Below, in pieces: positions 8,257 through 50,434 of a DNA stretch of 64,000 bases. Each line of letters begins with the position of its first letter. Within the stretch, counting starts at the first letter, position 1. The notes below the pieces were generated by a model, which worked only from the letters and a program-made list of their open reading frames with translations, was not told the DNA's origin and ran no database searches. The translations under genes were made by a program, and so were the position numbers. Source of the DNA: Thermoanaerobaculia bacterium (lineage in GTDB: Bacteria; Acidobacteriota; Thermoanaerobaculia; UBA5066; Gp7-AA6). The stretch covers positions 5,536 through 69,535 of the forward strand of contig DATBFU010000067.1 of assembly GCA_036558325.1 (NCBI GenBank), read 5' to 3'.

Positions 8257-11200
8257 TCATGCCTTCTCGAGCTGGACGAGGAAGGTCTTGTATTCAGGCG
8301 TCCACGTGTTGGGGTCCATGGCCGAAGGCGTCAGGAAGTTGGCCAGCGGACCGGTGTGACCGGGAGTCGCGTCGTAACCCCAGTGCAGCGGAAAACCGAT
8401 GTACCACTGCGTCTTGCCGTTGACTTGGAGCGGACGGAGACGCTTGGTCACCATCGCGACCCCCTCGACGGAGCCGCGCGCGGAGGTTACGCGGGCGCGG
8501 CCTCCGTTGACGATCCCCTTCTCTTTGGCGAGCTCCTCCGGAATCTCTATGAAGAAGCCGGGCTGGAGCTGGTTCAGTCGGTCGATGTTCTTCGTCCAGT
8601 AGTGGTACATCTCGGTCAAGCGGTAAGTGGTGCAGATGATCGGAAACTTATCCGCCGTGCCGTAGACGTCCTTGTCCGTCTTGAACCGCTTGGTCGCCGG
8701 GTTCGAAGTCACCTTCGGATGGAGCGGGTTCTCGATCGCCGCCTCGACCGCCTCGTAGTGCTCGGGGAAGGGCCCGTCGTTCAGCGGCGCGAAGATCTTC
8801 CCCACCCCTTCCGGTAGCATGATGAAAGCGCCGTACTCGCCGGGCGGCGCGTCGGGCTTCATGTCGGGAACGTCTCCGACCCATTTTTCTCCGTTCCATT
8901 TGATGCCGACCCGCGTGGGGTCCCAGGGCTTACCCTCCGCGTCCGCCGATGCCCGGTTGTACATGACGCGGCGATTGGCGGGCCAGGAAAAAGTCCAGTT
9001 GTGGTACATGCCCAAACCAGACGGATCGTCGATCGAATTTCGGCGCTGGGTCAGGTTTCCGGCTTCCGTGAAGCAGCCGGACATCAGCCAGTTGCCGCAC
9101 ATCGTCGTGCCGTCGTCCTGCAGCTGGCCGAAACCATCGACCTGTTGTCCGGCGGTCTTGAGGACCTTCGTCTTGTCCTTGGGGTCGGGGATGTCGGCGA
9201 GCGCCCGTCCGTTCAGCTCCTTGAGGCATTCCGCCAGGTCCGGCGCCACGGGGTTGCTGTAGGACCAATCGATGTTGAGCACTGCCTCAGGAAGCGCACC
9301 GCCTTCCTTGCGGTAGAGATCCCTCACGGCGAGGAAGATGCGAGAAAGGATCTCCTGATCCGACCTGGCCTGCCCGGGGGGATCCACGGCCTTCCATTTC
9401 CACTGGATCCAGCGCGCGGAGTTGGTGAAGCTCCCGTCCTTCTCGGCGAACGTCGCGGCGGGAAGCTGGAACACCTCCGTCGGGATCTTCGAGGCCTCGG
9501 ACGTCCCGTATTCTTTGGGGGCCTGCCAGAAGTTCGCCGTCTCGATCTCGTGATTCTCTCCGACGACGAGCCATTTCAGCTTGGAGAGAGCGGCGATCAT
9601 CTTGGGAGAGTTCGGCCCGATCCCGACGGGATTCATTCCGAACGTGATCAGGCCCTCCGGTCCGGGCTCCTGTCCTCCGGCGCGCGTCGAATTTCCGCGG
9701 TACATGTCGTCGAAGATGTACATCCAGGAGTAATTGCCGTCGACCTTGGGGAGCCAGGCGTATCCAAATTCGTTTTCTTTCGTGCCCGCTTTGCCGTAAG
9801 TCGCTTTCAGCAGCGAGGCCATGAACTTGGGATAGTTCTGCCAGTAGTTCATCGACGGCCCGAGCGCTTTGGGGATGTTGGCCTCGTTGTACTCCTTGAG
9901 GCTCTGCCACTGGGACTGCGGGGTCTTGACATATCCGGGAAGGATTTCGAACGTGCCCGCGGTATCCGTCGCCCCCTGGATATTCGAGTGCCCGCGCAGG
10001 GCGTTGACGCCGCCGCCGGGCCGGCCGACGTTGCCGAGAAGGAGCTGCAGCATCGCCGCCGTGCGGATCATCTGCACCCCGACCGAATGCTGCGTCCAGC
10101 CGAGCGCGTACATGATCGTTCCGGCGCGCTGCGCGTTGCCCGTCGATGTCACGACCTCGGCGACCTTGAGAAACGTGTCCTTCGGGGTGCCGCAGACCCT
10201 TTCGACCATCTCCGGCGTGTAGCGGTCGACGTGCTTCTTCAGGAGCTGGAACACGCAATTCGGATCCTGAAGCGTCCGATCGGTCTTCGCGAAACCGGTC
10301 TTCGCCTCGGTCTGATAGGCCCAGGTGTCCCGGTTGTAGCTGCCGGAGGCTGCGTCGAAGCCGGAGAACAAGCCGTCGTCGAACTCGAATGCCGGGTTGA
10401 TCAGAAGAGGGGCGCTCGTGTGGATCTTGACGTAGTCCTCGTGGTAGCGATTGTTGGCGATCGCGTAACGGATGATGCCCAGCAGATACGCGATGTCGGT
10501 GCCCGGCCGGATCGGGGAATAGAGATCGGCGACCGCGCCGGTGCGCGTGAAGCGCGGATCGACTGCGACGATCTTGGCGTTACGAGTCTTCTTGGCCTCG
10601 ATCGCCCATTTGAAGCCGCAGGGATGGTTCTCGGCGGGATTGCCTCCCATGCAGAGGACGACATCGGCGTTCTTGATGTCGACCCATCCGTTGGTCATCG
10701 CTCCCCGGCCGAACGTGGCGGCCAAACTGGCCACCGTCGGCCCGTGTCAAACCCGGGCCTGGCTGTCCCGGTACGGCACCCCCAGGGCCGTGATGACCTT
10801 CCATTGGAGCCAGTTGAATTCGGTGGTGTCCGTGCAGCCACCGATCATCGCGATGCCGGGAGTGCGATTGACGACTTGTCCCTTCGCGTTCTTCGCGACG
10901 AAAGTCTTGTCGCGCGTGTCCTTGATGTGGCGCGCGATCTTGGCGACCGCTTCGTCCCAGCTGATGTCCTCCCAGTGATCCGATCCCGGCCGTCGGACCT
11001 TCGGCTTCATCAGGCGGTCTTTGCTGATGATGTCGTCCTTCACGGTCGCGCCCTTGGGGCAGAGCGTTCCGCGATTGATCGGATGGTCGGGGTCGCCTTC
11101 GACATGGACGACGGCGGCCGTCGCGTTCTTCGCCTTGTCGCCGAGAGTATGGATGATCATTCCGCACGAGACCGCGCAGTACGGGCAGGTACTTCGGGTC

Positions 11201-11328
11201 TCGGTGGTGCGCGAGATCTTGAACTCGCGCATCTCGGCTTGCGCGTCGGAAACGTCGAAGCCGAGCGCGATCGACGTTCCGATGCCGGTTGCCTTGAGGA
11301 ATCCGCGTCGCGAGATCTGCACCTTCAT
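8257..11328 (-). CDS. fdnG: formate dehydrogenase-N alpha subunit, selenocysteine-containing (in-frame TGA at 10747-10749), Tat signal
   Basis: Two adjacent track ORFs (10747..11328 and 8257..10734) are in the same frame, separated only by TGA. The flanking peptide DSQARV-U-HGPTVASL matches E. coli FdnG ...ARVUHGPTVASL. The N-terminus SRRGFLKATG is a Tat motif. Confidence 0.9.
10700..10746 (-). promoter_or_regulatory. putative SECIS hairpin immediately downstream of the Sec UGA of fdnG
   Basis: mRNA ACGGUGGCC-AGUUU-GGCCGCCACGU can fold as a bulged stem-loop about 10 nt after the UGA, as bacterial SECIS elements require. Confidence 0.4.
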
Positions 11329-27085: not shown

Positions 27086-28057
27086 TCACGGCGCCGGCGC
27101 CTTCGCGTAAGCCATCGCCCGGAGCAGCGCGATCCGCCGGGCGATCGGAGGGTGCGTCGAGAAGAGGCTCGCCCAGGCGCCGGAACGCTCGTTGATCGGT
27201 CTTCCCAGCGGATCGGCGATGCAGAGCTGCGCCACGCCCTGCTTGATCGAAGGGGTCGGCGCCACGGCGGCGTCGATCTTCTCGAGCGCCGAGGCGAGCG
27301 CGAGGGGGTTGCGCGTCAGCTCGGCGCCCGAAGCGTCGGCCAGGTACTCGCGTTCGCGTGAAAGGGCGAGCGCGACGAGCCGCGCCACCAGGGGCGCGAG
27401 CAGCAGCGAGACGACCCAGAGCACGAAGAAGACGATCCCGAAGAGGCCCGAGCGGCCCTCGCGGCGCCCCGCCGCGCGGCCGCCGCCCCAGCGCAGGCCG
27501 CGCCGCGACGCGTCCGCCACGAGCAGGATCGCCCCCGCGAGCGCCGCCACGACGGTCATGAGGCGGATGTCGAGATTGCGTACGTGCGACATCTCGTGCG
27601 CCACGACGCCCTGCAGCTCTTCGCGGTTGAGCGCGTCGAGCGTCCCGCGCGTGACGGCGATCGACGCGCGAGCGGGGCCGGGTCCGGTGGCGAACGCGTT
27701 CGGATCGGAATCCGGAATCACATAGACGGACGGCTTGGGAATCCCGGCGGCGATCGCCATCTCCTCGACGACGTTGTCGAGCGCGCGCTCGGCCGGATCG
27801 GCCGGGTTCAGCGGCCGCGCCGTCGCGGATTCGAGGATCGCGCGATCGCCCGAGGAGAGCGCCCACCACGCCGAGAGACCGCCGAAGGCCAGGGCGCCGA
27901 TCGTGCAGATCGGCACGCCCGGAGACCCTCCGGCGCCGTAGAGGAAGCCGTCCGCGCCGAGGCCGAGGATCGTGAGAAAGAGGACGATCGCGGCGAGAAA
28001 AACGGCCGTGCGCTCCCGATTGCGCTTCTGCTGCTCGTAGAGGTTGGTCGCGCTCAA
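27086..28057 (-). CDS. htpX: protease HtpX homolog (M48 zinc metalloprotease)
   Basis: HEMSH zinc motif, two N-terminal TMs, about 320 aa. Confidence 0.9.
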   Translation of the reverse strand: MSATNLYEQQKRNRERTAVFLAAIVLFLTILGLGADGFLYGAGGSPGVPICTIGALAFGGLSAWWALSSGDRAILESATARPLNPADPAERALDNVVEEMAIAAGIPKPSVYVIPDSDPNAFATGPGPARASIAVTRGTLDALNREELQGVVAHEMSHVRNLDIRLMTVVAALAGAILLVADASRRGLRWGGGRAAGRREGRSGLFGIVFFVLWVVSLLLAPLVARLVALALSREREYLADASGAELTRNPLALASALEKIDAAVAPTPSIKQGVAQLCIADPLGRPINERSGAWASLFSTHPPIARRIALLRAMAYAKAPAP

Positions 28058-28067
28058 CGCGCCGGAA

Positions 28068-28649
28068 TCAGGACGGTCGGACGGAGAGGTCCACCTTGGG
28101 GACTTCGCGCTCCGCCGCGTCGCGGATCTCGTAGAGCTCGACCGGCTGGAATCGGAAGGTCTGCGCGATGAAGCTGTCGGGGAAGACCTGCTGCGCCGTG
28201 TTGAAGCGCGTCGCGAGATCGTTGTAGAACTGCCGCGCGAATCCGATCTTGTTCTCGGTCGAGGTCAGCTCCTCCATCAGCGCCCGCACGCTCTCGTTCG
28301 ACTTGAGGTTCGGGTAGCTCTCCGCGAGCGCGAAGAGCCGGGACAGCGTCTGGGTGAGCTGGTTCTCTTTCTGCGCGGTGTCCGCCACGCCGTGTGCGCC
28401 CGCCGCCGCGTTGCGCGCCGCGATGACCTTTTCGAGGGTGTCCTGCTCGAACTGCATCTCCCCCTTGACCGAGGCGATGAGGTTGGGGATGAGGTCGTGG
28501 CGGCGCTTCAGCTGGACGTCGATCTGCTTCCAGGCGTTGGCGACCTGATTCTTCAGGGAAACGAGGTTGTTGTAGCGCCAGATCGCCCAGATGGCCGCGA
28601 CGAACGCGAGGGCGACGAGAAAGAACAGGCAGCCTCCGACGGCCATCAT
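28068..28649 (-). CDS. lemA: LemA family protein
   Basis: N-terminal TM plus the conserved LemA core (WKQIDVQLKRRHDLIPNLIASVKGEM..., FYNDLATRFN). 10 nt upstream of htpX. Confidence 0.9.
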   Translation of the reverse strand: MMAVGGCLFFLVALAFVAAIWAIWRYNNLVSLKNQVANAWKQIDVQLKRRHDLIPNLIASVKGEMQFEQDTLEKVIAARNAAAGAHGVADTAQKENQLTQTLSRLFALAESYPNLKSNESVRALMEELTSTENKIGFARQFYNDLATRFNTAQQVFPDSFIAQTFRFQPVELYEIRDAAEREVPKVDLSVRPS

Positions 28650-28653
28650 CGCG

Positions 28654-29784
28654 TCAGGCGTTCAGTCCCTGCCGCAGCTCCCGGGACAGGATCTCGACGG
28701 CCGACCGCGTCCCGCCGGTCATCTTTTCCTTCCAGACGGTGTCGGTCTCGAAGCGGCGGTCGCCGATGGATTCGGCCCACGGCCGCAGGGCGGCGTCGAG
28801 CTCGCTCGCCGACCAGACGTCGCCGCCGCGGCTGCGGGTCATGGCGATGACGTAAGGCACCGTCCGGATGAACGCGCGCAGCGCCGTCGAGCTCTTGATC
28901 GAGTATTTGCGGCCCGCAAACGCCGCCGGGAAGGCCTTCGCCGCCGCCTTGAAATAATTGAGGAAGAATCGGCGTGCGTTCTCGCGGAACTCCCGGGCGA
29001 TCCGTCCGCCGGCGGCATCCATCGCCGCGAAAACGTCGCGCAGCTCGTCCGCGAGCGATGCCTGGGTGACCGCGCCCTTGCCGATGCCGAGCACCTTGAT
29101 CTGACCCTTCAGCGGCGAGTGCTCGTCCTCGTTCAGCGCGCGGATGATGTCGTGCGCGGCGGCGAGGTTCTCGTCGCGGTAGAGGCGCCGTCCGGAGAGC
29201 GAGATCAGATGCGAAGGGTTGAGCTTGGTGTGCTTGCTGTTGATCGTCACGAAGAGCTCGACGACCTGATCCGGCGTCAGGGAATCGAAGACGACGGCCG
29301 GGACCTGGAAGTCCTTCAGGTTGTGCTTCTCCGCGAGCTGGTGCAGGGCGAGCAGCCGGTGCTGTCCGTCGAGCGCCCGCAGGATGCCGGACTCGTCCGG
29401 CAGCTTCAAGGTGCCGATGTCGTTGCGCGAGGCCGAGGAGGTGAAGTCGAGCCGCTTCTCGGACACGAGCAGCACGCTGCCGGGAATCGCCGGGAGCGTC
29501 CCGGAATCCGCGCACTGGAGGTAGTAGGCGACGAGCTCCTCGATCTTCTTCTGGATGATGGGCCGCTGGAACGCCTGCTCGGAGGCCGCGATCTTTTTCT
29601 CCAGGAACTCCCAGTTCACCCGGACTTCCTTGCCCTTGCGCGCGTGGGGCCGCGTGGTTTGCGAATGCGGCCCGAAGGAGAGGACCTCGAAGCCGACCAG
29701 GGTCTGGAGGTCGGCGCCGGACAGCAGAGCCTCGTAGAACCGCACGCCGAATTGGTTCAGCCGGAGCGAGGGAACAGACAGCAT
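28654..29784 (-). CDS. DGQHR domain-containing protein (DndB-like, ParB/Srx superfamily)
   Basis: Motif RALDGQHRLLALHQL. Second ATG (29782-29784) chosen because AAGGGGGG lies 7 nt upstream and the first ATG sits inside a TATAAT box. The stop is 4 nt before the lemA start. Confidence 0.8.
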   Translation of the reverse strand: MLSVPSLRLNQFGVRFYEALLSGADLQTLVGFEVLSFGPHSQTTRPHARKGKEVRVNWEFLEKKIAASEQAFQRPIIQKKIEELVAYYLQCADSGTLPAIPGSVLLVSEKRLDFTSSASRNDIGTLKLPDESGILRALDGQHRLLALHQLAEKHNLKDFQVPAVVFDSLTPDQVVELFVTINSKHTKLNPSHLISLSGRRLYRDENLAAAHDIIRALNEDEHSPLKGQIKVLGIGKGAVTQASLADELRDVFAAMDAAGGRIAREFRENARRFFLNYFKAAAKAFPAAFAGRKYSIKSSTALRAFIRTVPYVIAMTRSRGGDVWSASELDAALRPWAESIGDRRFETDTVWKEKMTGGTRSAVEILSRELRQGLNA

Positions 29785-29847
29785 CCGGATCCCCCCTTGT
29801 CGCGGGCGCATTATATGTAAGGGCCCGGCGAGGGCCCGGCCGGATCG

Positions 29848-30192
29848 TCAGGGAGGGGAGATCGCCCGCCAGTCGGCCGCGCCGGCCATCCGTTCGTGCA
29901 TCTGGGACGCCCCGGCGAGGATTCCCCGCAGCTCGGCGGTCAGGAGCTTTTCGAGGTCCGGGAGGTTCGCCGGATCGGCGAGCGGAACCGAGCACTCGAT
30001 GGCCGTCTGGCCGAGCGAGGCGAAGAAGGGCGACGGCCGGCGGGTCCAGTCGGACTCGTTGCGCCGGTGCTTGGTCATCAGGAAGGCGGCGAGTCGGCGC
30101 TCATCCCAGGGCTCGATGAGCGTCCAGCGAAAGTTCGCCCGGGCGCCCTTGTGCTGCACTTCGGGCTTCTCCGCGGCCAGAGCGATCGACAT
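29848..30192 (-). CDS. hypothetical protein
   Basis: 114-aa ORF upstream of the DGQHR gene. AT-rich divergent promoter region upstream (30193-30235). No recognisable domain. Confidence 0.4.
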   Translation of the reverse strand: MSIALAAEKPEVQHKGARANFRWTLIEPWDERRLAAFLMTKHRRNESDWTRRPSPFFASLGQTAIECSVPLADPANLPDLEKLLTAELRGILAGASQMHERMAGAADWRAISPP

Positions 30193-33277: not shown

Positions 33278-33805
33278 ATGGCGAACGAAGTGAGAATCAA
33301 GCTGACGGACGAGCAGAAGGCGAAGATCAAGGAAGCCACGGGCAAGGACATGCCGGAGATCCGGGTCGGCAGCCTCGGCGACAACCCCGCCCTCTCGGCG
33401 AAGACGGTCGCCCCGCACGCCTCGGCGCGCAACATCCACGCCGCCCGTAACGTCCAGGCGGCCCGTAACGTCCAGGCGGCCCGTAACGTCCAGGCGGCCC
33501 GCAACGTCCAGGCGGCCCGCAACGTCCAGGCGGCCCGAAACGTCCAGGCGGCGCGCAACGTCCAGGCCGCCCGCAACGTCGCGGCGGCGAAAAGCATCTC
33601 GGCAGCCAAGAACATCGCGGCAGCCAAGAACATCGCGGCGGCCAAGAACATCTCCGCGGCCAAGAACATCACGGCCGCCAAGACGGTCTCCCCGCGCAAC
33701 ATGGCCCGCAACCTGTCGGCCCGCAACGCGACGCGCAATCTCTCGGCGCGCAACGCGAGCCGGAATCTGTCCTCCCGCAACTCGACGCGCGGCACGACCA
33801 AGTAA
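33278..33805 (+). CDS. repeat protein of unknown function: about 45-aa N-terminal region followed by about 14 tandem hexapeptide repeats ([RK]N[IV]xAA) and 9-mer RNxxRNLSA repeats rich in N-x-S/T
   Basis: Strong RBS and ATG. 18-bp perfect and near-perfect DNA tandem repeats from about 33443. Sigma-54 promoter upstream, rho-independent terminator downstream. No homolog recognised. Confidence 0.7.
   Translation: MANEVRIKLTDEQKAKIKEATGKDMPEIRVGSLGDNPALSAKTVAPHASARNIHAARNVQAARNVQAARNVQAARNVQAARNVQAARNVQAARNVQAARNVAAAKSISAAKNIAAAKNIAAAKNISAAKNITAAKTVSPRNMARNLSARNATRNLSARNASRNLSSRNSTRGTTK
33443..33790 (+). repeat. in-frame tandem repeat tract (14 x 18 bp units GCCCGYAACGTCCAGGCG / GCCAAGAACATCGCGGCR, then 27-bp units)
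   Basis: The first three units are identical; later units drift. Entirely coding within 33278..33805. Confidence 0.85.
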
Positions 33806-33827
33806 CCTCGCGCCACCGGATCTTCGA

Positions 33828-33858
33828 GCGCCCCGCCTCGGCGGGGCGCTTTCTTTTT
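33828..33858 (+). terminator. rho-independent terminator (GCGCCCCGCC-tcg-GCGGGGCGC + TTTCTTTTT)
   Basis: Perfect 9-10 bp GC stem followed by a U-tract 22 nt after the repeat-gene stop. The stop codon of the convergent gene lies within the T-tract. Confidence 0.65.
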
Positions 33859-48731: not shown

Positions 48732-49412
48732 CTACCGCGCCTCGGCGAGCGAGAGGAGCCGCAGGCAGTCCTCCAGATAGGCTCGGGATGCCTGCGTGAG
48801 CCGGAAAAAGCGGCAACCGAGGCCGGGGTCCGGCTCCGCGCCGAGGCGAACGACGATCGCTTCCGCGACGACGTTGCGGTCCGCGCGCTCGCCCGGGATC
48901 TCGAACGAGACCTCGATGCGGGCGCCGATCGGGAGCGCGATGGGCGTCCGGACGAAGAATCCTCCTCGGGAGAGATCCCGGATCGCGCCGGAGTGCTCGC
49001 TGCCGTCCCGCCAGAAGACCACACGCCACGGGACGGGGGAGCGCTCGTTGGTGCGGGGGAAGAGCTGGAGAAAGCGGCGCAGCGTGCCGAAGAACGCCGT
49101 GTCGTCGAAGGCGCGGGGGAGGATCCCGTCGGCGGCCGCCCGGCGAACCTCCGTGCCCTCCTCGTCGGTGGCGAGGACGACCGGCGTCCGGGCGAATCGG
49201 GGATCCGCCTTGAGCACGCGGCAGACGTCGAGGCCGCTCATGCCCGAGAGCTCGGCGTCCAGGAAGACCAGGTCGGGCCTCTCTTCGCGCGCCACGGTGA
49301 GCGCGTCCGAGCCGCTCGAGGCGGTGAGGACGCGGCACGAGGTGCGCCGGCGAATCGCGTCGGCGACGCTCCGGAAAAGGCCGCTGTCGTCGACGAGGAG
49401 GACCGAATTCAC
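48732..49412 (-). CDS. response-regulator receiver domain fused to a PilZ domain
   Basis: LLVDDS...D(53)...K REC. C-terminal RRFLQLFPRTNERSPV...DLSRGGFFV is a PilZ RxxxR / DxSxGG motif. Confidence 0.75.
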   Translation of the reverse strand: MNSVLLVDDSGLFRSVADAIRRRTSCRVLTASSGSDALTVAREERPDLVFLDAELSGMSGLDVCRVLKADPRFARTPVVLATDEEGTEVRRAAADGILPRAFDDTAFFGTLRRFLQLFPRTNERSPVPWRVVFWRDGSEHSGAIRDLSRGGFFVRTPIALPIGARIEVSFEIPGERADRNVVAEAIVVRLGAEPDPGLGCRFFRLTQASRAYLEDCLRLLSLAEAR

Positions 49413-50434
49413 CCATCAATTATAGGGCCGCCGTCGATCCGCAGCCCCCCGGTATCATCCGGGCCACCATGGACACGATCACTCACGGCATCGCGGGCGG
49501 CGTCCTGGCGCGGTCGGCTTCGGATCGGCCGGGGGCGCGCGCGGCGGTCGCGATCGGGCTCATCGCGGCGATGCTGCCGGACCTCGACATCCTCTACATC
49601 CGCACCCGGCTCGACTACCTGCGCTACCACCGCGGATTGACACATTCCTTCGTCGTGCTGCCGGTCTTCGCGCTCCTCGTCGCGCTGGCGGCGCGTCTCG
49701 TGTTCCGGCGCGCGCGGCTCACGACGCTCTGGCTCTTCGCGGCCATCGGGATCGCTTCGCACATCGTCCTCGACTGGATCACGTCGTTCGGCACGATGTT
49801 CTTCTTTCCGCTGTCGCAGCACCGCTACTCGCTCGACTGGGTCTTCATCCTGGACCCTTTCTTCACCGGGCTCGCGGCGCTGACGCTCTTCGCATCGCTC
49901 GTGTACCGGAGCCGCGGACGCGCGATCGCCGTCGCGGGGTCCTCGGCTCTGGCCGTCTACGTCGCGTTCTGCGCCGTGCAGCACGCTCGCGCTCTCGACG
50001 CCTGGCGCCGCGCGGACCGGCCGCCGCTCGGCTCCCGGGTCGCGGCGCTGCCGCAGTTCCTGTCGCCCTTCCGCTGGCTCGGGCTGTCGGATCGGGGCGA
50101 CGCCGTGGACGCCGGCTTTTTCGACGTCGGCCCGTTCGCGCGGGGCGTGGACGATCCCCGCCCCCCGCGGCGGTTCTCCGAAATCCTCGCGAGCCTCGCC
50201 GACTTCTATCCGCCGATCGCGCGCGTCAAGATCCGGCGATTCCCCCACCCGCCGCCGTCTCCGGCGCTCGCGGCGGCGCGCTCCCGGCCGGACGTCGAGG
50301 CCTATCTGCGTTTCGCGCGTTTTCCGCGGGCCGTCGTGCGCGCCGGACCCGGCGGCGGCACCGAGATCGTCTGGGAGGACCTGCGTTTCCTGCCCTGGTT
50401 CGCCGGACCGTGGCAGATGGACGCGAAAGGCGTG

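Follow-up and report, generated by a model that had tools for sequence, protein, structure and literature searches.

A solitary DGQHR-domain gene in Thermoanaerobaculia and its derived junction with lemA-htpX

Introduction

A stretch of 64,000 nucleotides (nt) from a Thermoanaerobaculia bacterium (Acidobacteriota; assembly GCA_036558325.1, contig DATBFU010000067.1, positions 5,536 to 69,535 of the forward strand), hereafter the window, carries a gene for a protein of the DGQHR-domain family, known from DNA-modification systems, directly followed by lemA and by a gene for an HtpX-type membrane protease. An earlier reading of the locus, made from the sequence without database searches, had proposed that the three genes form an operon and had called the link between a DNA-targeting type of domain and a membrane-stress protease pair unexpected. 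Here, we compare the locus with its relatives and find that the lemA-htpX adjacency reflects local synteny and a deletion of about 70 nt, not a functional partnership; the DGQHR gene belongs to an orthologue group that appears, from its sequence relatives, to be solitary and mostly vertically inherited.

Results

Organization of the locus

Four genes, orf114, the DGQHR gene, lemA and htpX, follow one another in one direction on the minus strand of the window (Table 1). The stop codon of the DGQHR gene (28654-28656) is separated by 4 nt from the lemA ATG at 28649; the lemA stop ends at 28068 and is followed, after a further 10 nt, by the htpX TTG at 28057. The DGQHR-lemA-htpX layout described in the sequence-only reading is present in all its features, and in this genome the three genes are packed as in an operon. 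The mechanically listed open reading frame (ORF) of the DGQHR gene spans 28654-29811 on the minus strand and encodes 385 residues. We placed the true start at the second ATG, at 29784, because all homologues are 374-382 residues long and because a ribosome-binding site (RBS) lies 6 nt before this codon; the G-rich Shine-Dalgarno sequence upstream of the gene is kept in relatives.

The products of the two downstream genes are clear LemA and HtpX-type M48 proteins, as in the known lemA-htpX membrane quality-control pair. LemA matched PF04011 with 184 bits (cut-off 26.2) over profile positions 1-148 of 149. The protease, whose translation contains the HEMSH (HExxH) zinc motif, matched PF01435 (Peptidase_M48) with 107 bits (cut-off 20.3); the best NCBIfam HtpX model gave 287.6 bits, below its equivalog cut-off of 355, and we regard the protein as HtpX-like at the family level. 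The product of orf114 had no match in Pfam, NCBIfam or PADLOC.

Table 1. Features of the DGQHR-lemA-htpX locus, in coordinates of the window
Feature	Position	Strand	Basis or remark
DGQHR-domain gene (376 residues)	28654-29784	minus	ORF list; start from homologue lengths and RBS position
Shine-Dalgarno sequence AAGGGGGG	29791-29798	minus	6 nt 5' of the ATG at 29784; sequence read
TATAAT, -10-like box of the DGQHR gene	29810-29815	minus	25 nt 5' of the ATG
LDGQHRL codons	about 29353-29373	minus	Sequence read
Codons D139-G-Q-H-R143 (DGQHR)	29356-29370	minus	Core of the invariant GxxRxxA signature, GQHRLLA, residues 140-146
Codons Q73-R74, QR pair of the DGQHR domain	29563-29568	minus	Invariant in alignments; defined in PMC4619093
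Codons F178-V-T-I-N182, FxxxN motif	29239-29253	minus	Alignments; defined in PMC4619093
CGCG junction, 4 nt, DGQHR stop to lemA ATG	28650-28653	minus	Spacer lengths, junction alignment, tree polarity
lemA (193 residues; N-terminal transmembrane helix and LemA domain)	28068-28649	minus	PF04011, 184 bits
htpX-type M48 zinc metalloprotease gene (323 residues; TTG start; HEMSH motif)	27086-28057	minus	PF01435, NCBIfam HtpX models
orf114, upstream neighbour of the DGQHR gene	29848-30192	minus	Only in the clade of at least 83% identity
GGGCCC-N5-GGGCCC hairpin, after the orf114 stop and ahead of the -10 box	29821-29837	minus	Sequence read

Linkage to lemA-htpX is confined to one sub-lineage

Relatives of the DGQHR protein were sought in a profile-guided search of genomes, one for each GTDB species, which gave 469 confirmed relatives, with 80 loci kept; eleven further loci came from metagenomic contigs. 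The LemA, HtpX, orf114 and HlyD proteins of the window were searched by tblastn against 89 loci (L001-L089). The block HlyD, orf114, DGQHR, lemA, htpX was found only where the DGQHR protein is at least 83% identical to that of the window, which is one Thermoanaerobaculia sub-lineage; about 23 loci of this clade keep the DGQHR-lemA-htpX gene order. Like the block, orf114 is confined to the syntenic clade (62-96% identity), and it lies outside the conserved context of the DGQHR family. LemA and HtpX were absent by tblastn from nine loci of the Thermoanaerobaculia sister clade (74-76% identity), in which Ser/Thr kinase genes or a convergent glutamate dehydrogenase gene are found downstream and a gene for a 536-residue protein upstream. 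They were likewise absent within 6 kb at all 61 loci of 49-60% identity, which belong to Binatia, Methylomirabilota/Rokubacteria, Desulfobacterota, Myxococcota, Vicinamibacterales and one metagenome-assembled genome (MAG) labelled Verrucomicrobiia. The linkage is limited to the clade of at least 83% identity, and its 4-nt form to the window and one relative with a 98%-identical protein; in that form it is essentially unique to this genome.

The 4-nt junction is a derived deletion

Spacers from the DGQHR stop to the lemA ATG run from 4 to 266 nt across the syntenic clade (median 73.5 nt), and all but three loci have one of 58-266 nt. Just before the GGAGG-type RBS of lemA, at 21-29 nt upstream of its ATG, 14 of the 19 syntenic loci contain (G/A)AAC-N16-CGTA, and one more has the same motif with N17 (together L003, L009-L014, L016-L022 and L027; for example L010:7132-7205). 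Over all loci, the strict motif has a background rate of 0.005 per 200 nt. An AAC element at -35 and a CGT element at -10, at such a spacing, are a hallmark of promoters recognized by extracytoplasmic function (ECF) sigma factors (sigma-W/M/X-type consensus). ECF promoters with GAAC at -35 and CGTA at -10 have been illustrated (PMC4336711), and the lemA spacer motif is a putative promoter of this type. In this clade, lemA normally has a promoter motif and an RBS of its own, which speaks against the connection that the earlier reading drew from a DNA-targeting domain to a membrane-stress protease pair.

The motif is missing at the 4-nt spacers (window and L058), at the 12-nt spacer of L024 and in the 116-nt hairpin spacer of L015; no RAAC-N15-17-CGT motif was found in the 200 nt upstream of lemA in the window. 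Four spacers fold strongly, with energies of -54 to -122 kcal/mol (L003:9132-9289, L013:7132-7300, L015:7129-7244 and L027:851-1116), and at least three of these four look like insertions of palindromes resembling repetitive extragenic palindromic (REP) elements. The spacers of L003 and L027 are built of CAGC/GCTGA-type repeats, which suggests an element family, REP-like or resembling miniature inverted-repeat transposable elements, that spreads in these genomes.

Alignment of the junctions showed that the window and L058 are without the segment that bears the promoter motif and the RBS in L010 and L011. We also considered whether the 4-nt gap might stem from a wrongly annotated lemA start, and rejected this, as the LemA N-terminus aligns from the same ATG in the window and in the relatives. 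The DGQHR proteins of the window and of L058, 98% identical, come out as sisters in a neighbour-joining tree of these proteins, inside a group with L010, L003 and L011, all of which bear spacers. Because the window and L058 nest among spacer-bearing loci, the 4-nt junction is the derived state, a deletion of an ancestral spacer of about 60-80 nt, and the ancestral lemA-htpX pair had a putative stress-type promoter of its own. In the same tree L024 groups with the spacer-bearing L018 and L021; the spacer was lost twice independently, once in the window/L058 lineage and once in L024.

A conserved -10 box upstream of the DGQHR gene

A (C/A)TATAAT box precedes the ATG by 25-30 nt in 13 of the 18 Thermoanaerobaculia sequences aligned, drawn from the clade of at least 83% identity and from the clade at about 75%; in L018, L021 and L024 it lies about 95 nt upstream, and L014 and L019 are without it. 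Since the box is kept in two clades that differ in their flanks and downstream genes, the DGQHR gene is likely to have its own promoter, and the -10 box and the strong RBS pointed out in the earlier reading are both in place. TATAAT occurs three times on both strands of the 64 kb, against 0.45 expected; the GC content of the window is 69%. A simple promoter scan made no call for the DGQHR gene, no -35 match being found, and the case rests on the conservation of the -10 box.

GC-rich hairpins are found in relatives at the same place as the GGGCCC-N5-GGGCCC hairpin listed in Table 1. The element in the window, which a simple terminator scan did not report, is probably the orf114 terminator and would separate orf114 from the DGQHR transcription unit. 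A further candidate, a hairpin of a C-tract and a G-tract in the 5'-untranslated region that would hide the RBS, was dropped: the C-tract is probably located 5' of the transcription start, and the clade at about 75% lacks it.

The DGQHR protein is distinct from DndB and DpdB

The protein scored 115.2 bits against TIGR03187 (DGQHR domain; curated cut-off 58.85) and 55.4 bits against PF14072, the Pfam DndB family (cut-off 29.1), the latter match being confined to the N-terminal half (profile positions 22-185 of 338). It gave 32.3 bits against the DndB equivalog TIGR03233 (cut-off 328), again in the N-terminal half only, and 31.7 bits against the DndB model of PADLOC; residues 79-299 matched the DpdB equivalog NF041060 with 47.3 bits (cut-off 300), DGQHR_dnd_1 gave 47.5 bits (cut-off 450) and GmrSD_N 23-25 bits, below the Pfam cut-off of 33.2. 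Because the scores against the DndB and DpdB models are about a tenth of the curated cut-offs (7-10 times below), we classify the protein, on its profile matches, as a DGQHR-domain family member that is neither DndB nor DpdB. Its closest database relatives are proteins of Thermoanaerobaculia and other Acidobacteriota MAGs annotated as 'DGQHR domain-containing protein', and family membership agrees exactly with the naming already given to relatives in public annotation. The DGQHR/ParB-Srx-type assignment of the sequence-only reading is borne out by the TIGR03187 score and by the presence of the QR, DGQHR and FxxxN motifs; the clustering with bona fide DndB that it had considered was not found, the score being 32 bits against the 328-bit DndB cut-off.

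These three motifs, a QR pair, a nearly invariant DGQHR and FxxxN, define the DGQHR domain (PMC4619093). In three-tier alignments that include a paralogue group, FQR 72-74, DGQHR 139-143 and FVTIN 178-182 are invariant from 98% down to 25% identity. Residues 140-146, GQHRLLA, fit box II of ParB, GxxRxxA, with G140, R143 and A146 invariant; the DGQQR motif of DpdB and SspE has been described as analogous to this nucleotide-binding signature (PMC10164549).

An AlphaFold2 model built from the three-tier alignment (predicted local distance difference test, pLDDT, 69.9; predicted template modelling score, pTM, 0.62) has an N-terminal alpha/beta domain and, at moderate confidence, an all-helical domain at residues 241-375. 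The same layout has been described for DpdB, a homodimeric ParB-fold ATPase with a positively charged tunnel for double-stranded DNA made up of its helical C-terminal domains (PMC10164549). The C-terminal domain of the DGQHR protein has an isoelectric point of 10.2. No EHxxP/HNH nuclease motif was found in the protein; it has only 'EHSPL', whose H222 is variable (H in 15, D in 13 and T in 12 of 43 sequences). A profile search of the PDB sequences returned no relative. The loop at residues 184-203, SKHTKLNPSHLISL (about 29176-29235 of the window), contains the family-invariant T186, N189, S191, H192 and L196 and may be ordered by substrate.

Distribution and inheritance of the orthologues

Within Thermoanaerobaculia, orthologues are 74-98% identical to the DGQHR protein of the window; for those of Binatia, Methylomirabilota, Desulfobacterota, Myxococcota and Vicinamibacterales the figure is 50-60%. 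In the neighbour-joining tree, the Thermoanaerobaculia (two sister clades) and the Vicinamibacterales are each monophyletic, Methylomirabilota and Binatia form one clade each, with one or two differently labelled MAGs nested in it, and the Desulfobacterota-labelled loci are split. One of the nested proteins, from the Verrucomicrobiia-labelled MAG (L047, DATJFY010000124.1), falls inside the Methylomirabilota/Rokubacteria clade, a placement that points to rare horizontal transfer or else to an error in binning. Within the syntenic block the DGQHR protein is the most conserved, with 83-98% identity against 67-88% for HtpX and 44-91% for HlyD.

No orthologue was found on 72,556 plasmids or in 50,697 phage genomes; the only matches were partial, at most 30% identical and mostly annotated as other DGQHR-domain proteins. 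An exhaustive HMMER search of 1.84 billion cluster representatives brought up only some 1,000 clusters at E<=0.001, of which many were fragments. When the flanking ORFs were clustered, no family was common to the flanks of different clades. The commonest Pfam family beside the DGQHR genes, a membrane acyltransferase, accounted for 11 of the 126 immediate neighbours of 63 non-syntenic loci, the others being unrelated housekeeping genes (TonB-type receptors, LamB/YcsF, GreA, RNase III, kinases). The 25%-identical paralogue group, in Polyangia, is also solitary. From these comparisons, the orthologue group appears to be solitary, chromosomal, mostly vertically inherited and core-gene-like, without a conserved neighbour.

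The surroundings hold no DNA-modification partners

Every plausible ORF of the 64-kb window was scanned individually against Pfam, and no gene of the dnd, ssp, dpd or pbe type was found. More specifically, the scan of the window revealed no PAPS-reductase-type protein (DndC/SspD), DndE, cysteine desulfurase (Aminotran_5), DUF262 protein or tRNA-guanine transglycosylase (TGT; DpdA), and no methyltransferase or restriction gene; the sole SMC_N/AAA_23 protein is the chromosomal SMC protein of 1185 residues, not a DndD-type protein. At about 90 related loci, too, no PAPS-reductase, DndE, DndD-type ABC ATPase, TGT or DUF262 neighbour was found. The description of the gene as solitary in the earlier reading therefore stands, within 64 kb and beside these loci. 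Nor does the locus resemble a defence island: the neighbours are housekeeping genes, the tree is largely congruent with taxonomy and no plasmid or phage orthologues were found.

The window is an ordinary piece of core chromosome from a Thermoanaerobaculia bacterium. Its other genes include a formate dehydrogenase cluster, ABC and MFS transporters, a Ser/Thr kinase-Usp protein, acetyl-CoA synthetase, an EAL protein, HlyD-like proteins, a histidine kinase with a sigma-54 response regulator, SMC, beta-ketoacyl synthases and glmM-ybbR-folP-dinB-ftsH-hpt. The GC content at third codon positions of the DGQHR gene is 0.91 and matches that of its neighbours. A PADLOC scan covered 46 window ORFs, and the families listed (25 of 71 matched) look like generic-domain matches. 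The models matched included mad3, mad6, mad8, IetA, AriA, PD-T4-6 and RtcR/PspF, some with strong E-values; because Pfam finds kinase, sigma-54 AAA+ and ABC/SMC domains in the window, they look like generic matches of such domains to housekeeping genes.

Four observations concern the wider window. An in-frame TGA at 10747-10749 (minus strand), within 'SQARV*HGPTVA', divides the catalytic subunit of formate dehydrogenase into ORFs 10747-11328 and 8257-10734; from its sequence context, we take it to be the classic FdnG/FdhA selenocysteine site and both ORFs to be one selenoprotein gene, which fdhD, the Fe-S subunit, the cytochrome b subunit and fdhE adjoin. A 175-residue ORF at 33278-33805 (plus strand), without a Pfam match, consists mostly of the hexapeptide repeats AARNVQ and AAKNI(A/S), encoded by an 18-nt tandem repeat (about nine plus six copies, at 33423-33683). 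A scan of 26-34.5 kb with Rfam returned only a sub-threshold ncS54 match (28.7 bits; gathering score 43) at 33736-33857, which is unrelated to the DGQHR locus, overlaps the end of this ORF and is probably due to chance. Another TATAAT (49419-49424, minus strand) lies 6 nt upstream of the listed start of a response-regulator-PilZ gene (48732-49412), which suggests a leaderless transcript or a true start further downstream.

Discussion

We consider it probable, though by no means certain, that the locus consists of two unrelated units that lie side by side, a ParB-fold DGQHR switch gated by nucleoside triphosphate (NTP) and an independent lemA-htpX pair. The DGQHR protein would belong, as a stand-alone and chromosomally inherited protein, to the DGQHR branch of the ParB/Srx (ParB-CTPase-fold) superfamily and would be expressed from its own sigma-70-like promoter. 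DndB is an ATP-modulated DNA-binding repressor of the dnd phosphorothioation operon. By analogy with DndB and DpdB, we infer that a nucleoside triphosphate would be bound in the pocket formed by the invariant QR, DGQHR (GxxRxxA) and FxxxN motifs, and that its binding and hydrolysis may gate dimerization and DNA binding by the basic, helical C-terminal domain. A DndB-like protein has been found to bind both ATP and GTP (PMC12704722). The DGQHR protein would thereby act as an NTP switch, a regulator or a DNA clamp on some chromosomal target, rather than as a nuclease. It shares with the CTP-dependent clamps ParB, Noc and KorB the GxxRxxA box II-type signature and would share the proposed NTP-gated dimerization on DNA; in contrast, it has no similarity detectable by sequence to solved ParB structures, no helix-turn-helix (HTH) domain was found in it and there is no parA/parS context.

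The lemA-htpX genes, for their part, would encode an ordinary pair for membrane protein quality control, the ancestors of which had an ECF-type (envelope-stress) promoter and an RBS. In Streptococcus pneumoniae, too, the two genes lie next to each other and are regulated together (PMC8546594), which fits an autonomous pair. In the lineage of the window, as a result of the deletion of about 70 nt, lemA-htpX would be read through from the DGQHR promoter, with stop-start coupled translation; from the junction sequence, co-transcription and coupling behind the DGQHR gene are probable in this genome. The pair differs in this from the known one, as it has lost its own ECF-type promoter and RBS with the spacer and sits behind an unrelated gene.

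Several points weigh against this interpretation. The ParB fold of the DGQHR protein is deduced from family membership and motifs; a Foldseek search of the moderate-confidence AlphaFold2 model against the PDB gave no significant match, the best relevant one being SspE (6jiv, E=0.8), and a Pfam scan of the C-terminal half (E<=10) returned only noise and no recognizable HTH or other DNA-binding domain. Confidence in the model is lowest at the highly conserved loop of residues 184-203 (pLDDT 39-46). The ECF-type promoter in the lemA spacer is read from its motif. Moreover, the 4-nt junction makes co-expression of the DGQHR gene with lemA-htpX likely in this genome, so that some lineage-specific regulatory coupling is possible.

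A wider proposal can be put forward only tentatively, and we hold it to be doubtful: the solitary group may represent an undescribed housekeeping NTP switch with the ParB-CTPase fold, a chromosome-associated clamp or global regulator without a link to modification or defence, which would be a core gene in Acidobacteriota, Methylomirabilota, Binatota, Desulfobacterota and Myxococcota and would secondarily have captured lemA-htpX in the lineage of the window.

It is unlikely that the protein is instead a stand-alone ParB/Srx effector of defence or conflict, that is, an NTP-degrading enzyme or a nuclease directed against invading DNA. The ParB superfamily does include conflict nucleases and NTPases (PMC10853773), the protein weakly resembles the N-terminal domain of GmrSD (the 23-25 bits given above) and SspE was the top relevant structural match, if a non-significant one. 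With the DUF262 domain of SspE and GmrSD, the DGQQR NTPase of modification-sensing nucleases, the protein shares a related ParB/Srx-like N-terminal domain and the motif trio (PMC4619093); in contrast to these nucleases, it stays below the cut-off and has neither a DUF1524/HNH domain nor EHxxP. A defence role is further contradicted by the lack of any conserved nuclease motif, by housekeeping neighbours that differ between clades and form no defence island, by strong purifying selection (50-60% identity across phyla), by a tree largely congruent with taxonomy, and by the absence of orthologues from the plasmids and phages searched.

We find it quite improbable that the protein is an enzyme that does not act on DNA, using a Srx-like ATP pocket for a sulfiredoxin-like reaction or for nucleotidyl or phosphoryl transfer to a protein or small molecule. 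About 60 residues invariant over 25-98% identity look active-site-like, among them H142, H148, D167, E176, T186, N189, S191 and H192, and sulfiredoxin has the same fold and a GCHR-type motif (PMC4619093). However, the DGQHR protein has no conserved cysteine, its sole one, C91, not being invariant; the characterized DGQHR and DGQQR proteins all act on or with DNA, and the C-terminal domain here is strongly basic.

There is very little to recommend the view that the protein is a true DndB or DpdB that works in trans, on phosphorothioation or 7-deazaguanine insertion, with dndCDE, sspABCD or dpdA encoded elsewhere in the genome. DpdB (47 bits) and DndB (32 bits) are its closest named relatives in the model libraries, and the search for partner genes covered 64 kb of the source genome. 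DpdB, the ParB-fold ATPase of the Dpd 7-deazaguanine system, is the best named match and has a similar architecture, with an N-terminal ParB-type domain together with a C-terminal one that is alpha-helical and devoid of a nuclease motif (in a model of moderate confidence here). However, the score falls far below 300 bits, the motif is DGQHR instead of DGQQR, no dpdA/TGT or other dpd gene was found in the window or at the related loci, and the gene is solitary and vertically inherited. With DndB it shares a DGQHR domain with the three motifs and a Pfam DndB score above gathering; it differs in a C-terminal half that has no match to the DndB profile and in the absence of dndACDE beside the gene or its orthologues. 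The scores are 7-10 times under the equivalog cut-offs of 300, 328 and 450; DndB is described as a component of dnd clusters (PMC10853773), yet neither the window nor about 90 loci have such neighbours, and the vertical, core-like inheritance is unlike the patchy, mobile spread of these systems.

Least probable of all, and already largely refuted by the phyletic pattern, is a functional module in which the DGQHR protein cooperates with the membrane-stress pair, acts as its sensor or controls it: the three genes do share a strand with gaps of 4 and 10 nt, keep their order in about 23 loci and, in the lineage of the window, include a lemA without promoter motif and RBS of its own that probably depends on DGQHR transcription and translation, but the linkage is absent from the Thermoanaerobaculia at about 75% and from all orthologues of 50-60% identity, the spacers of the syntenic clade (58-266 nt bar three loci) hold an independent ECF-type motif and sometimes REP-like insertions, the tight junction is derived, and the lemA-htpX pair occurs without a DGQHR gene in other bacteria (PMC8546594).

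The reading of two unrelated neighbours removes the apparent oddity of the locus, as the arrangement of a ParB-like protein with a membrane protease pair becomes a young deletion artefact of synteny. The locus is, at the same time, a small and well-resolved case of an operon formed when an internal ECF-type promoter was lost. Discussion of DGQHR proteins has mostly been limited to their role as accessories of phosphorothioation or deazaguanine systems; the group delimited here is a well-defined set of solitary orthologues that behave as core genes in a number of soil phyla that have received little study. Their NTP-binding signature is intact, and no partner genes were found. This fits recent evidence that the ParB-CTPase fold is employed far beyond chromosome segregation, and makes the solitary DGQHR group a clean candidate for biochemical testing.

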